DNA of 16,725 bases from a virus, in IMG/VR virus record IMGVR_UViG_3300013099_000164, one strand, 5' to 3'. Below, piece after piece: positions 5,799 to 8,517 of the stretch (the stretch's first letter is position 1; each line of letters starts with the position of its first letter). The notes under the pieces were generated by a model. That model was given only the letters and a program-made list of their open reading frames with translations. It had not been told where the DNA came from and did no database searches. Position numbers and translations under genes: made by a program.

Positions 5799-6284
5799 AT
5801 GAAACGACTATTTTTAGTAGCAATGCTTGCCATCGGGATGGTATTCGCTACATCAAATCAAGCGCAAGGGCAAAGCGCTTTAAATCTTCAAGCTGGTTAT
5901 TCTTGGTCAGAGGGAGTAATTGCAGCAGGATATCAATATTCTGATTTTGAAGCTAAGCTCGGTTATATGTTTACTTCAATGCCAGGTGATGGCAGTTCAG
6001 TAAGCGGACCAACATTTACTCTTATCTGGGGTCCCAAATGGTATGAGTCAGGCTATTACCTAAGTTATACCTATAACTCTGTTGGGTATCGTGCTCAGTA
6101 TTCAACTAATGGTGGATCCTGGGGAGATAATAATATTGAAGGAATGAATATCCTTTCTATCGGATATAAAATCGGAGGTGAAAAAGTTTATCTCAAAGCC
6201 GACGTAGGTTATGGATGGAGTGACAGTGCAAATGGAATGTCATATGGTATAGTAGTAGGAGTTCCCCTATTCGGAACATATTAA
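5799..6284 (+). CDS. Outer-membrane beta-barrel protein (signal peptide, Gly/Tyr-rich amphipathic strands, C-terminal aromatic residue)
   Basis: Signal peptide MKRLFLVAMLAIGMVFATSNQAQG. Alternating aromatic and Gly beta-strand pattern (GYSWS, GYQYS, LGYMF, VGYGWS). The protein ends in ...FGTY. I chose ATG 5799 rather than the track's TTG 5793. Confidence 0.65.
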   Translation: MKRLFLVAMLAIGMVFATSNQAQGQSALNLQAGYSWSEGVIAAGYQYSDFEAKLGYMFTSMPGDGSSVSGPTFTLIWGPKWYESGYYLSYTYNSVGYRAQYSTNGGSWGDNNIEGMNILSIGYKIGGEKVYLKADVGYGWSDSANGMSYGIVVGVPLFGTY

Positions 6285-6296
6285 AAAAAAGAAAAA

Positions 6297-6716
6297 ATGA
6301 AAAAATTAAGATTTTTAAGTATTATAGTAAGCTTGTTATTAGGTGTATTCCTAACAAGTTGTGAAGAAGTAGTCCCTTATGAAGAACCGTGTGTTAAGAA
6401 TAATACAGGAACTTTCATAGTACAAAACACTACTGGGTATGTTGTTTATGTAGATGTAGATGATATTGCCGAAAGAAGATTGAGTAATGGCGGACAAACT
6501 ACATATAGTAATGTTCCAGCTGGAAGTCATAGAATGTATATTGACTTAGGAAATGGTTGGCAATACAAAACTCAATATCTAAAGGCATGTGAAACACTTA
6601 CTTATACCTGGTATCTCCAAAATAAAAAATCTACTGAACCTCTGTTATGTTTAGATATTATAATGGATGGGGTGATTATTGATACTGTAACAGATTTTGA
6701 AAGGGATGCAAAGTAA
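6297..6716 (+). CDS. Lipoprotein (lipobox LTSC)
   Basis: N-terminus MKKLRFLSIIVSLLLGVFLTSC. The Cys follows a hydrophobic h-region, as in a signal peptidase II lipobox. Confidence 0.65.
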   Translation: MKKLRFLSIIVSLLLGVFLTSCEEVVPYEEPCVKNNTGTFIVQNTTGYVVYVDVDDIAERRLSNGGQTTYSNVPAGSHRMYIDLGNGWQYKTQYLKACETLTYTWYLQNKKSTEPLLCLDIIMDGVIIDTVTDFERDAK

Positions 6717-6756
6717 AGTAAGGAATAATATTTCAAATAATTAAAAATAGACAAAT

Positions 6757-8517
6757 ATGAAACAACTTTTCTTGTTATTAGCCTTTATAATGTTCGGCAT
6801 TACGATTCAGGCTCAGGAGTGCGGTAGTTATGTAGATCTAGTAGGATCTGGCATTGCCGGAGAAAGTTCTGCTTCCTTAATAATCGATGCAACATCGGTT
6901 GACTCTATTGTAGTAGAGGCCATTTATAAATCTACTACTCAACCATCTGCTGTAAGATTTTGGACCGCTACGGAAGAAGTATTTGTAGAACCAGTCGATG
7001 TTTTAGTTAGTGGACTGTTGGGATCGGTTAATAATGATCCAATTATTGCAAGCGTTTATCGAACAACATTGAGCGCCGCATCGATTGTAAATTTGGATAT
7101 TCTCCAAAACACTCCCGAATTTTTTTCCTTTGCAGCTTACGTATTTTCCCCGAGCCTAGGAATTTCTTCCACGGTCAGCGGGGATTTATATCATGTCTAT
7201 AAGAATGAAGATAACCCATTAGTTACAAACATTCCAATTCCTACTTCAGTAAATTCTCGAAATATTACTATTCGATATGGAATTACTGAATTAAACAATG
7301 ATGAAAGAAAAGCTATATTTACATTCGAAGCAGATGGAACATTGATTGAAAAAGAAGTGTATGCTTGGGATGATGGTATTGGAGAAACAGAATCATATAC
7401 GATTCAAGACGTATTGATTTTGGGTGTTCCTGGAAATGTGGATAAAATTATAATGACCCAAATTTCTCATAATTATGATCATGATGGAACTGGAAGAGGT
7501 GATTCTTGGATTGGAGGAAGAGTAATTGCTGATATTCCATGTGAAAAAGAAAAGAAAGATTCTGCCCTGTTTTGTACATATACTCAAGGGTTTTATGGAA
7601 ATAAAGGAGGGAAAACCTGCTTAGGCGAAACAACTCCAGAAATAATTGCAAGGCTATTAGCCACTGATTTAGTATTAGGTTTAGGAAATAATACTTTTAC
7701 TATATCAGCTGGTAATGTAGATGATGTACTGGGTATTCTTCCAGGTGGTGGACCTTCAGCAGTTCTAAATGGACACGCTACTTATGCTAATCCAGTAGGA
7801 TTGAACATGAAAAAAGGAAAACTAAAGAACACACTATTGGCTCAATCCATTACGTTTGCTCTTAACCTTAGGAATAATCCTGATATGCTTTTATTTAAAC
7901 TCGACCCTTTTACTACTCAGTTTCCGATGGATTGTTCTAGCATAGAAGCTGGGGGAATTCCTGGAAGCGAAAAAGAATTTAAGTTCTCTCAAGCTATTGT
8001 GGATTATCTTGGAGATGATGCAACAATAGGAGATCTGCTAGATCTTGTTAATTTGGCTCTTTCGGGTGGAGACATCGGTACATTATCATTAAGTAATGTC
8101 TCTGATGCTGCAACCCTTGTAAATGAGGCATTTGATGAATGTGTATACGTTACAGTTGAAGCAGAGGAAGAAATACCAGAAGTAGCTCCAGTAGTAGAAG
8201 TCATAGAGGAGGATGAAGGTACTGAAGAAGATGGTGGAACAAAAGGAACAACTGGAATAAATGATATTGAAGCAGGTTCTTTTAGTTTATACCCAAATCC
8301 TGTAGGCGATCAGATGTTTATAAATCTTTCACCTGAAATTAGAAATGTTAAAACTATTTCAATGTATAACGTAACAGGAGCAACTGAAAAGATTTTAACT
8401 GATAATTTTAATGCTAATTCAATACAAATCGATGTATCTGATTTAAATGAAGGAATGTATTTTCTAAGAATAGATGCAGACACCGGAACTGTGGTAAGAC
8501 GCTTTACCGTAAACTAA
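6757..8517 (+). CDS. Secreted T9SS substrate: signal peptide, large Ser/Thr/Gly-rich body, acidic linker and C-terminal Por/T9SS sorting domain
   Basis: N-terminal signal MKQLFLLLAFIMFGITIQAQ. The C-terminal ~80 aa (SFSLYPNPVGDQMFINL...GMYFLRIDADTGTVVRRFTVN) matches the TIGR04183/Por_Secre_tail pattern (LYPNP, GxYxxR, K/R-rich end). The EEEIPEVAPVVEVIEEDEGTEEDGG linker sits just before the CTD. Confidence 0.8.
   Translation: MKQLFLLLAFIMFGITIQAQECGSYVDLVGSGIAGESSASLIIDATSVDSIVVEAIYKSTTQPSAVRFWTATEEVFVEPVDVLVSGLLGSVNNDPIIASVYRTTLSAASIVNLDILQNTPEFFSFAAYVFSPSLGISSTVSGDLYHVYKNEDNPLVTNIPIPTSVNSRNITIRYGITELNNDERKAIFTFEADGTLIEKEVYAWDDGIGETESYTIQDVLILGVPGNVDKIIMTQISHNYDHDGTGRGDSWIGGRVIADIPCEKEKKDSALFCTYTQGFYGNKGGKTCLGETTPEIIARLLATDLVLGLGNNTFTISAGNVDDVLGILPGGGPSAVLNGHATYANPVGLNMKKGKLKNTLLAQSITFALNLRNNPDMLLFKLDPFTTQFPMDCSSIEAGGIPGSEKEFKFSQAIVDYLGDDATIGDLLDLVNLALSGGDIGTLSLSNVSDAATLVNEAFDECVYVTVEAEEEIPEVAPVVEVIEEDEGTEEDGGTKGTTGINDIEAGSFSLYPNPVGDQMFINLSPEIRNVKTISMYNVTGATEKILTDNFNANSIQIDVSDLNEGMYFLRIDADTGTVVRRFTVN

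Follow-up and report, generated by a model that had tools for sequence, protein, structure and literature searches.

Lambda encodes an eight-stranded outer-membrane barrel of the Ail/Lom type, Lom, and an outer-membrane lipoprotein, Bor, both of which are expressed from the prophage and are not adjacent partners. Llp of T5 and Cor of phi80 and N15 are exclusion lipoproteins that block the phage receptor against superinfection and loss of progeny. Among phages of Bacteroidota, T9SS cargo genes are carried by the 'Cryophage' from cryoconite holes (Bellas et al. 2020, PMC7468147) and by phages of crAss-BACON cluster 2 (de Jonge et al. 2019, PMC6949934), and the authors of both papers suggested roles in superinfection or competition. 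Huge phages encode surface-localised proteins that perhaps affect susceptibility to other phages (PMC7162821), and Flavobacterium phage-resistance studies link resistance to gliding-motility and T9SS genes.

We analysed a viral stretch of 16,725 nucleotides, hereafter the window, in which three consecutive genes appear to encode proteins addressed to the host envelope. The three ORFs were confirmed on the + strand, directly 3′ of the gene for an 811-aa MVP-like protein, as the initial annotation had described; the MVP assignment was also confirmed (MVP_shoulder, 2e-29; Vault_3, 2e-10). The products carry export signals of the Bacteroidota type, judged by a heuristic of hydrophobicity, charge and lipobox together with conservation, so that their predicted targeting to the envelope, a central claim of that annotation, is well supported. 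The best explanation, in which we place somewhat more confidence than doubt, is that three phage proteins remodel the envelope by means of the host export machinery. The features on which the analysis rests are the following.

2348..2572, + strand: small multi-pass membrane protein, from its hydrophobic segments.
5708..5758, + strand: terminator-like hairpin with U-rich tail (GAAACTTTTGTTATTTTTA), at the end of the MVP gene and ahead of the envelope block.
5799..6284, + strand: predicted small outer-membrane 8-stranded beta-barrel protein, 161 aa.
5799-5870, + strand: predicted Sec signal peptide of the barrel, with predicted cleavage after A-Q-G that leaves an N-terminal Gln.
6297..6716, + strand: lipoprotein, 139 aa, from the heuristic scan and conservation.
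6297-6359, + strand: lipoprotein signal peptide, lipobox L-T-S-C; the codon of the lipidated Cys22 is 6360-6362.
6757..6816, + strand: signal peptide of the T9SS cargo, residues 1-20, with predicted cleavage between I-Q-A and Q-E-C.
6817..7539, + strand: N-terminal beta-sandwich of the cargo, residues 21-261, the presumed functional end.
7540..8142, + strand: Cys-rich alpha/beta middle domain, residues 262-462, from alignment.
8143..8286, + strand: acidic disordered linker, residues 463-510 (EEEIPEVAPVVEVIEEDEGTEEDGG; pLDDT 25-47).
8287..8517, + strand: T9SS type-A C-terminal sorting domain (CTD; residues 511-585) and stop codon, from HMM and fold.
12975..13310, + strand: second, distant lipoprotein paralogue, 111 aa, with lipobox L-Q-S-C followed by D-E.

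Position +1 after the predicted signal peptide of the barrel is Q in 33/33 homologues, and position -1 is A or G. The modelled fold is a closed antiparallel barrel with an even number of strands, like solved outer-membrane barrels, and its best matches were the N-domain of OprF, OmpA and NspA, all of them non-channel anchors. Residues E40, R100, K126 and D137 are invariant. The loops are very short and the protein would therefore offer little surface for receptor mimicry. Outer-membrane barrels carry a C-terminal beta-signal with an aromatic residue in last position. The C-terminus of the window protein reads ...GVPLFGTY; the last residue within the family (n=33) is Y in 13 members, F in 4, N in 9 and another residue in 7. 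Searches of Pfam, NCBIfam, PHROGs and PADLOC with the barrel protein returned nothing significant. The OMP_b-brl families, to which the initial annotation had looked, were matched neither by the window protein nor by 31 family members at E up to 1, and the same held for OmpA_membrane, Ail_Lom and OmpW in Pfam and NCBIfam. A PDB profile search with the family was empty. Foldseek against the BFVD viral structures gave only weak matches (E >= 2.5e-3) to OMP-like proteins of uncultured phages, which leaves the barrel without a close viral relative.

The lipoprotein begins with a positively charged n-region, a hydrophobic h-region and a lipobox (MKKLRFLSIIVSLLLGVFL-TSC). The lipobox Cys is invariant in the 12 aligned relatives, all of which have S or G at -1, and it is followed by an acidic stretch, C-E-E-V, in which +2 is E or D in 12/12 and +3 in 10/12. 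A conserved pair of cysteines, C32 and C98, lies in the beta-rich mature domain. A profile search recovered 176 representative clusters, and comparison with Pfam, NCBIfam, PHROGs and PADLOC gave nothing significant; 'hypothetical protein' was the sole name given to the distant relatives that were checked. The paralogue at 12975..13310 aligned to the lipoprotein with 24% identity and has the invariant columns in common, and tblastn tied it to the lipoprotein genes of three other loci (L011, L015 and L016). Surface lipoproteins of Bacteroidota carry a lipoprotein export signal (LES) after the Cys, namely SDDDD, SDDFE or K-(D/E)2 (Lauber et al. 2016, PMC5080379), and we took K-(D/E)2, Q-A-(D/E)2 or an S-D-D-type sequence at +2 to +5 as the criterion. 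Like LES lipoproteins, the window protein has conserved acidic residues right after the lipobox Cys, but its C-E-E (+2/+3), unlike the minimal LES, has no polar or basic residue before the acidic pair (PMC5080379). Because of this inexact fit to the consensus, surface exposure of the lipoprotein is a suggestion from its sequence.

Barrel and lipoprotein genes are adjacent, in either order, in four of five independent loci. Three of the four other loci have the pair placed between a DnaB-like helicase and an SbcD-like nuclease, within a PolB/RecA replication module, and the neighbours of the pair there also include an SbcC-like nuclease, a NUDIX gene and a dATP/dGTP pyrophosphohydrolase-like gene. 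The DnaB adjoining the pair in L011 is closest to those of Lak phages, two of the pair loci are IMG/VR viral contigs, and the pair is known only from metagenomic phage contigs. The two genes are an ancestral, co-inherited and phage-specific pair whose products probably act jointly in the outer membrane. By tblastn, the product of 2348-2572 showed 55% identity over 42 aa to 9216-9341 of L013 and 384-509 of L014. Since this homologue stands directly upstream of the pair in both loci, the small membrane protein may be an associated component.

A more specific proposal, which we consider unlikely, is that the barrel and the lipoprotein, possibly with the 2348-2572 protein, form a dedicated outer-membrane complex specific to Bacteroidota megaphages, which would either seal the cell against phage entry or disrupt the outer membrane independently of spanins, the T9SS surface protein having been added in the window lineage. 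If true, this would be a new class of viral envelope-engineering module, made of families without characterised relatives.

It is also unlikely that the pair is a lysis device, a Bacteroidota-specific spanin replacement that disrupts the outer membrane late in infection, with the T9SS protein unrelated to it. The architecture is spanin-like, with a lipoprotein gene adjoining a second envelope-protein gene in either order; a small multi-pass membrane protein precedes the pair in L013 and L014; and neither a spanin-like nor another lysis gene was recognised in the pair loci. However, the second protein carries a cleavable signal peptide ahead of an outer-membrane barrel, where a spanin partner would have an anchor in the inner membrane and a coiled coil. 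Among the ORFs that flank the pair in related loci no endolysin or holin family came up, and in three of the four other loci the pair sits inside a replication and recombination module. The lipoprotein, with ~117 mature residues, beta-rich and disulfide-bonded, is also unlike o-spanins, which are short and proline-rich. Overall, both marks of a two-component spanin, an i-spanin-type partner with an N-terminal transmembrane anchor and a periplasmic coiled coil, and a location in a lysis cassette with endolysin and holin, were absent.

A role in uptake is similarly doubtful. The barrel would then serve as a channel for small molecules, of the OmpW/AlkL/CarO type, and the lipoprotein as a binding protein at the surface, together supplying nutrients or nucleotide precursors for a very large genome. 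This would suit the position of the pair amid nucleotide and DNA-metabolism genes (NUDIX, dATP/dGTP pyrophosphohydrolase-like, PolB, RecA), and pairing of an outer-membrane barrel with a surface lipoprotein is common in Bacteroidota uptake (PMC6143338). Against it, the best structural matches of the barrel are anchors and not channels, 137-residue eight-stranded barrels whose interiors are polar and salt-bridged are normally without an open pore, and no ligand-binding family was found in the lipoprotein with Pfam or NCBIfam.

The third gene of the block encodes the 586-aa cargo. Its signal peptide (heuristic; K2, hydrophobic core 4-17) is conserved among homologues, and Gln occupies +1 in 19 of the 21 that retain the N-terminus. 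The CTD scored 55.2 bits against PF18962 (cut-off 27; E 9e-15) and 47.9 bits against TIGR04183 (cut-off 23; E 1e-12), and it occupies residues 511-585 of 586, at the extreme C-terminus. The Por_Secre_tail search, on which the initial annotation had staked its claim of a canonical T9SS CTD behind an acidic linker, was thus positive, with both models above their curated cut-offs. The predicted CTD fold is the Ig-like seven-strand beta-sandwich of solved CTDs. The N-terminal region gave only generic matches to carbohydrate-binding-module or galactose-binding-like folds. The middle domain, marked by the motifs C-x-Y-T-Q-G-F-Y-G-N, L-P-G-G-G-P-S and N-E-A-F-D-E-C, is a module that recurs widely ahead of the CTD in surface proteins of Bacteroidota. 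Because neither of these two domains had a specific fold match, we propose no biochemical activity for the cargo; a PDB profile search with its family returned CTDs and nothing else.

It is very improbable that the 586-aa protein is instead a virion or adsorption component in which the C-terminal Ig-like domain is a structural decoration and not a secretion signal. Ig-like and carbohydrate-binding domains are frequent on phage particles, and ORFs with T9SS sorting domains adjoin head genes in crAss-BACON phage cluster 2 (PMC6949934), but the conserved Q-rule signal peptide would take the protein out of the cytoplasm, where virions are assembled, the domain is by its score a genuine type-A CTD whose modelled fold matches translocon-bound CTD structures, the nearest relatives are cellular secreted proteins, and no structural gene was found nearby.

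Homologues of the cargo (n=24) share 36-59% identity with it over the aligned parts, and about 20 of them are full-length at 41-49%. Full-length cellular homologues were found in Bacteroidota MAGs only, which points indirectly to a host that may encode a T9SS, and the four contexts examined were ordinary chromosomal neighbourhoods whose neighbours are not conserved. The GC content of the window copy is phage-like, at 0.36 versus 0.41-0.50 in cellular contigs, and this copy groups with one on the phage-like contig L081; an IMG/VR pattern scan and tblastn against phages found no relative of the 586-aa protein. As judged from these comparisons, the cargo gene is one captured from a Bacteroidota chromosome and retained in a phage lineage. 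Adhesin-like proteins of Flavobacterium faecale (1799 aa) and Gaoshiqia (1181 aa) share the middle domain (TQGFYGN / LPGGGPS / NEAFDEC), the linker and the type-A CTD at 30-41% identity. They carry long arrays of Ig/HYR-like repeats where the window protein has a single N-terminal region of ~240 residues, and, unlike them, the window copy has lost, together, two otherwise conserved cysteines of the middle domain.

Signal peptides that obey the Q-rule are Bacteroidetes-specific (PMC5837995) and have been observed in P. gingivalis phages (PMC10367356); those of the window envelope proteins follow the rule. Because the T9SS CTD, the Q-rule, the restriction of full-length homologues to Bacteroidota and the affinity to Lak/Mahaphage relatives, which are predicted to infect Bacteroidetes, all agree, the evidence supports the host phylum given by the initial annotation, Bacteroidota.

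We read the window as part of a very large phage of such a host, lytic-type and Lak/Mahaphage-related. Its MVP-like protein matches only the huge-phage records LR756500/01/03 (462-735 kb; 49-52% identity), and a 283-aa protein (15208-16059) only Lak-A/B/C phages and LR7565xx/LR745206 huge phages, which places the database relatives of both exclusively in phages of 460-735 kb. An amber-suppressor tRNA(CUA) lies at 12889-12962 and TAG is nearly avoided among the 26 stop codons of the window (19 TAA, 6 TGA, 1 TAG); a TAG-suppressor tRNA with depletion of TAG stops is a megaphage trait (10.1101/2021.08.26.457843). The window also encodes an HNH/NUMOD3 homing endonuclease (phrog_655, 4e-44). Its genes share a single strand and mostly belong to no known family, and many ORFs are shorter than 100 aa. 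The full contig of 19.3 kb starts with a Sde182/DUF1593-type gene, typical of bacteria, and no capsid, tail, terminase or other structural phage gene was found across it. The description of the source as a phage or prophage stands in its viral part, given the megaphage-only markers. We rejected a prophage, and with it lysogenic conversion, because neither an integrase nor any further lysogeny gene appeared among the Pfam and PHROG matches, and because the window is allied to megaphages.

That the window is a bacterial chromosome or genomic island of Bacteroidota, and the three genes host envelope genes, is already largely refuted and highly improbable: the otherwise chromosomal 586-aa family, the opening gene of the contig and its 19.3 kb devoid of capsid, tail and terminase genes would fit, but they stand against marker proteins that match megaphages alone, the suppressor tRNA with avoidance of TAG, the homing endonuclease, barrel homologues confined to metagenomic contigs, four examined barrel loci with phage-type replication or other non-cellular genes (two of them in IMG/VR), and a window with no housekeeping gene, single-strand gene order and many short ORFs of no known family.

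The three genes had been described as one cluster ending at 8517, and here the analysis departs from the initial annotation. The block continues beyond 8517 with three paralogous small genes and a radical-SAM gene, with no gap or terminator between, and it is composite: the barrel and lipoprotein genes are a conserved phage pair, and the T9SS gene, seen beside the pair only in the window, is a separate addition derived from a host. The three-gene region had no blastn match among GenBank phages. Upstream, the hairpin at 5708..5758 folds as RNA with -19 kcal/mol (z -6.8), and its 19-nt tail recurs upstream of MVP, at 3176-3194 (two matches, where 0.06 would be expected), so that terminator-like hairpins stand on both sides of the MVP gene. 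No shared neighbours of MVP homologues were found within 12 kb on each side in LR756500 and LR756501, and for this reason we dropped the idea that MVP and the envelope genes are functionally linked. The adjacency is incidental, with the MVP gene bracketed by hairpins and its neighbours differing in related huge phages.

Under the favoured explanation, envelope remodelling, the barrel would pass through Sec, lose its signal peptide to signal peptidase I, so that Gln becomes the N-terminal residue, and enter the outer membrane through BAM as a minimal 8-stranded barrel. Acylation of the lipoprotein at Cys22 would be followed by its transport to the outer membrane, where it may be flipped to the surface, as the acidic residues next to its Cys would suggest. 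The cargo would cross the inner membrane by Sec and be recognised through its type-A CTD by the host T9SS, to end on the cell surface or be released from it. The infected cell would thereby present a remodelled surface that keeps competing phages, or the progeny of the phage itself, from adsorbing or entering. Analogy and gene context make superinfection exclusion or receptor masking the most likely purpose, with an expression timing suggested by the gene neighbourhood; PADLOC and PHROGs gave no match that ties the three proteins to exclusion, and homology likewise offered none.

Uncultured as the Bacteroidota megaphages are, and with most of their genes lacking a known function, the locus provides three testable proteins with predicted envelope destinations. 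Two of them are a conserved viral gene pair without known relatives, and the third is a captured T9SS substrate retained by a giant phage. Should these proteins block adsorption or open the outer membrane, they would give insight into competition or lysis among Bacteroidota megaphages. From sequence alone, megaphage fragments can also be assigned to Bacteroidota hosts by their Q-rule signal peptides and the T9SS tag.

The initial view that T9SS tags are rarely reported on mobile elements is fair, yet phage cargo had already been published (PMC7468147, PMC6949934). The locus thus adds a new, well-supported case to a strategy that phages were known to use, T9SS cargo having been published at least two times. 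As in Cryophage and the crAss-BACON phages, the host belongs to Bacteroidota by prediction, the gene ends in a type-A T9SS sorting domain, and the product is presumed to be placed on or outside the cell by the host T9SS. The cargos of Cryophage can be recognised as enzymes or as a PA14 protein (endoglucanase, GH39), whereas the window passenger combines a beta-sandwich N-domain and a Cys-rich pre-CTD module with no known function. In contrast to both phage groups, the carrier is a megaphage of the Lak/Mahaphage type and the gene adjoins a phage-specific barrel and lipoprotein pair. The barrel belongs to the 8-stranded outer-membrane class of the OmpA/OprF N-terminal domain, NspA, OmpW and PagL, but identity to these proteins is 9-21% with no profile-level sequence match, its family is known only from phage-like metagenomic contigs, and, compared with OmpA-type barrels, it has very short loops and no periplasmic OmpA-C domain. 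Like Lom, Bor, Llp and Cor, the pair would consist of small phage-encoded outer-membrane proteins, barrel or lipoprotein, inserted by host machinery, but it has no sequence relationship to them (Pfam Ail_Lom and OMP_b-brl unmatched). Unlike Lom and Bor, its two genes are conserved neighbours within a lytic-type replication module of Bacteroidota megaphages.

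The window is tightly packed with about 26 ORFs, all on the + strand (GC 0.34), and the ORF listing placed three of them directly downstream of a major-vault-protein-like (MVP) gene, exactly where and as the initial annotation had described them. This envelope cluster and its surroundings comprise:

3158-3194 and 5708-5758: stable hairpins that bracket the MVP gene (z -3.7 and -6.8, respectively)
3242-5677, +: MVP-like gene, 811 aa; MVP_shoulder (2e-29), Vault_3 (2e-10), Band_7
5799-6284, +: barrel ORF, 161 aa counted from ATG; alternative TTG start at 5793
6297-6716, +: lipoprotein ORF, 139 aa
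6757-8517, +: T9SS cargo ORF, 586 aa
8524-9854, +: three paralogous small genes (133, 145 and 163 aa) directly behind the T9SS gene
9808-10734, +: radical-SAM gene with weak viperin-like matches (NCBIfam 1.4e-9; PADLOC pVip 1.9e-12)

The spacing is 12 nt between the barrel and lipoprotein genes and 40 nt between the lipoprotein and cargo genes, and the following ORF begins 6 nt past 8517. Both hairpins carry a common 19-nt tail, GAAAC(C/T)TTTGTTATTTTTA (2 matches vs 0.06 expected), are terminator-like and may constitute a repeated regulatory element. Because such an element lies 3′ of the MVP gene, the envelope genes open a new unit; no terminator-like site was found between them and the small paralogues or the radical-SAM gene. 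The adjacency of MVP is incidental, since the neighbours of its homologues in 462- and 735-kb phages are unrelated to those in the window. A common N-terminal motif, H-S-x-x-D-x-[IV]-T-N-S-S-[ST]-x-[IL]-F, marks the small paralogues, of which the second and third are ~32% identical; the radical-SAM product may be a modification enzyme and the paralogues its substrates or partners.

Among GenBank phages, the MVP-like protein has relatives in just three records ('uncultured phage', 462 and 735 kb; 49-52% identity, 98-99% of the query covered), and it matched no PHROG. Phages were searched by tblastn with 21 concatenated window proteins as query. For the 283-aa protein (15208-16059) the only matches were Lak megaphages of Prevotella (37-38%) and huge phages of the LR7565xx/LR745206 records; the 139-aa protein (11984-12403) hit jumbo phages as well as Cellulophaga phage phi14:2. 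Other features of the element are:

971-1035: tRNA-like gene with an irregular 4-nt anticodon (ccag) (ARAGORN)
2021-2134: tandem repeat, period 28/56 nt, about 4 and 2 copies, 70-88% matches
11012-11653: HNH/NUMOD3 homing endonuclease (phrog_655, 4e-44)
12889-12962: tRNA with anticodon CUA (CTA), an amber suppressor labelled tRNA-Pyl (ARAGORN)
1-1212 of the source contig, upstream of the window: partial Sde182 nucleoside-hydrolase-like/DUF1593 gene (6e-56), C-terminal domain included

The homing endonuclease, preceded by a 278-nt gap that is the largest intergenic one between 3142 and 16059, is probably a mobile insertion, and the tandem repeat sits between ORFs, overlapping a dubious GTG-start ORF. 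The 26 + strand ORFs end in TAA (19), TGA (6) or TAG (1), as expected under Lak-type TAG recoding (10.1101/2021.08.26.457843); the CUA tRNA and the rarity of TAG fit reassignment of the Lak/Mahaphage type, and the window itself can be read with the standard code. The Sde182/DUF1593 gene, which belongs to a bacterial-type family, is probably another host-derived gene on a phage contig, and no structural phage gene was present on the 19.3-kb source contig. The initially suggested prophage was rejected, as the Pfam and PHROG matches included no integrase or other lysogeny gene and the affinities were to megaphages. Specific evidence also opposes a bacterial origin of the window. From the megaphage-only protein relatives, the CUA tRNA, the scarcity of TAG, the homing endonuclease and the lack of a lysogeny gene among those matches, we concluded that the source contig is, as judged from its sequence, a fragment of a Lak/Mahaphage-related megaphage. 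The Mahaphage clade, which unites the Lak phages with the largest of the huge phages, is predicted to infect Bacteroidetes (PMC7162821).

A Bacteroidota host, first proposed from the T9SS tag, gained independent support from the predicted signal-peptidase-I sites. The barrel site, A-Q-G↓Q, has Gln at +1 in all 33 of 33 homologues, and the cargo site, I-Q-A↓Q, has it in 19 of the 21 homologues having an N-terminus. This Q-rule, an N-terminal Gln after signal-peptidase-I cleavage, is Bacteroidetes-specific (PMC5837995) and has been observed among P. gingivalis phage proteins (PMC10367356). Gln again follows the likely cleavage site in a fifth protein with an export signal (window 256-612, 118 aa; MKLYTAVIGLFLMCSSVFG↓Q), for which no family match was found.

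Residues 511-585 of the cargo protein matched Por_Secre_tail PF18962 (55 bits, cut-off 27, E 9e-15) and TIGR04183 (E 1e-12), bearing out the annotated C-terminal sorting domain (CTD). In the AF2 model, built on 24 homologues (mean pLDDT 79), the signal peptide forms a helix, residues from about 22 to 261 a well-modelled beta region, those from about 262 to 462 a Cys-rich alpha/beta domain, and the CTD a beta-sandwich; the acidic linker noticed initially is disordered (residues 468-507, pLDDT below 50). The 24 homologues are 36-59% identical across aligned parts, about 20 being full-length at 41-49%. In a species-level genome scan, full-length copies were confined to MAGs of Bacteroidales, Bacteroidia and Bacteroidota, and the four contexts examined were ordinary chromosomal neighbourhoods without conserved neighbours (Cpn10/GcvP/peptidase M3; YjbQ/PIF1/RsmD; other T9SS genes; DUF1800/DUF1501). 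Giant adhesin-like proteins of Flavobacterium, Chitinophaga, Saprospiraceae and Gaoshiqia end in the same cassette of middle domain, linker and CTD.

The window copy is phage-like in composition (GC 0.36, GC3 0.21, vs GC 0.41-0.50 for the cellular contigs) and lacks two otherwise conserved cysteines together. Its closest N-domain relative (60% identity) is P0022, a T9SS-CTD protein encoded at 234-2528 of a phage-like contig, L081 (RCNG010004474.1; GC 0.38, called genes all on one strand), with the same N-terminal domain but DUF7467 repeats where the window protein has its Cys-rich middle domain. Of the 351 phage records matched by the adjoining phage-type RNA ligase, the 735-kb phage gave the top score. 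In a neighbour-joining tree (no bootstrap, midpoint root) the two proteins were sisters among cellular sequences. The simplest history would be a single capture from a Bacteroidota host by this phage lineage, which then kept the gene and exchanged its middle domain.

The barrel protein matched nothing in Pfam, NCBIfam, PHROG, PADLOC or PDB sequences. Its annotation as an outer-membrane (OM) beta-barrel thus stands for the fold, which is supported by prediction, but not for membership of a curated OMP family. Its 45 well-conserved homologues were found only on metagenomic contigs, of which two (43 and 56 kb) are viral entries in IMG/VR.

The lipoprotein begins MKKLRFLSIIVSLLLGVFL-TSC, with a charged n-region, hydrophobic core and lipobox by heuristic. 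An alignment of 12 relatives shows an invariant lipobox Cys preceded by S or G at -1 and followed by E/D at +2 in 12/12 and at +3 in 10/12; C32 and C98 are also conserved, consistent with an oxidising extracytoplasmic location. These acidic residues resemble the Bacteroidota lipoprotein export signal, whose published minimal form requires a polar or basic residue ahead of the acidic pair (PMC5080379), so surface exposure is only suggested. At E up to 1e-3, a profile search retrieved 176 representative clusters; the domain is repeated in tandem (2-4 copies) in some of them, and all ten clusters inspected lacked informative protein names. A distant paralogue lies at 12975-13310 (+) of the window. 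One homologue (IMG/VR contig L016, 5542-5997) begins MERRHFLRGLGG...SGC, with a twin-arginine-like motif before the lipobox, and some family members may therefore be exported via Tat rather than Sec.

Barrel and lipoprotein genes are adjacent in 4 of 5 independent loci, the window included: the lipoprotein comes first in L011/L012/L015 and in L016, the barrel first in L013/L014 and the window, and L010 has a barrel without adjacent lipoprotein. A sixth case is likely because the homologues P0065 and P0078 share one 3193-nt contig. In all three other loci with adjacency the pair is flanked by a DnaB-like helicase, nearest to Lak-phage helicases, and by an SbcD/SbcC-like nuclease; PolB, RecA, PhoH and NUDIX belong to the same module. 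Adjacency, shared replication context and the Lak-like helicase therefore identify the pair as a conserved, co-inherited viral unit. The envelope cluster is thus composite, a viral pair joined to a host-derived T9SS gene.

Export signals, folds, conservation of the pair, viral carrier and host origin of the cargo gene were shown computationally. The three proteins would be made during infection, early or middle expression being hinted at by the pair's position among replication genes in a TAG-free region, and would rely on host Sec, signal peptidases I and II, Lol/BAM and T9SS for insertion. Specific evidence speaks against spanin-like lysis, nutrient uptake and, for the cargo protein, a place in the virion. 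By analogy, the three proteins may alter the cell surface so that further phages cannot adsorb or enter.

OM barrels and lipoproteins made by phages are classical, and T5 Llp, Cor and lambda Lom/Bor are analogues for such phage-driven surface change. Huge phages have been reported to encode surface proteins possibly affecting susceptibility to other phages (PMC7162821), and a similar role was suggested for Cryophage (PMC7468147); in Flavobacterium, T9SS or gliding-motility mutations are reported to be linked to phage resistance. Phage-encoded T9SS sorting domains have been published at least twice (PMC6949934; PMC7468147). New with respect to these systems are a Lak/Mahaphage-type megaphage as carrier of a T9SS-CTD gene, a conserved barrel-lipoprotein pair from families without characterised relatives, and evidence of a captured T9SS substrate retained within a phage lineage.
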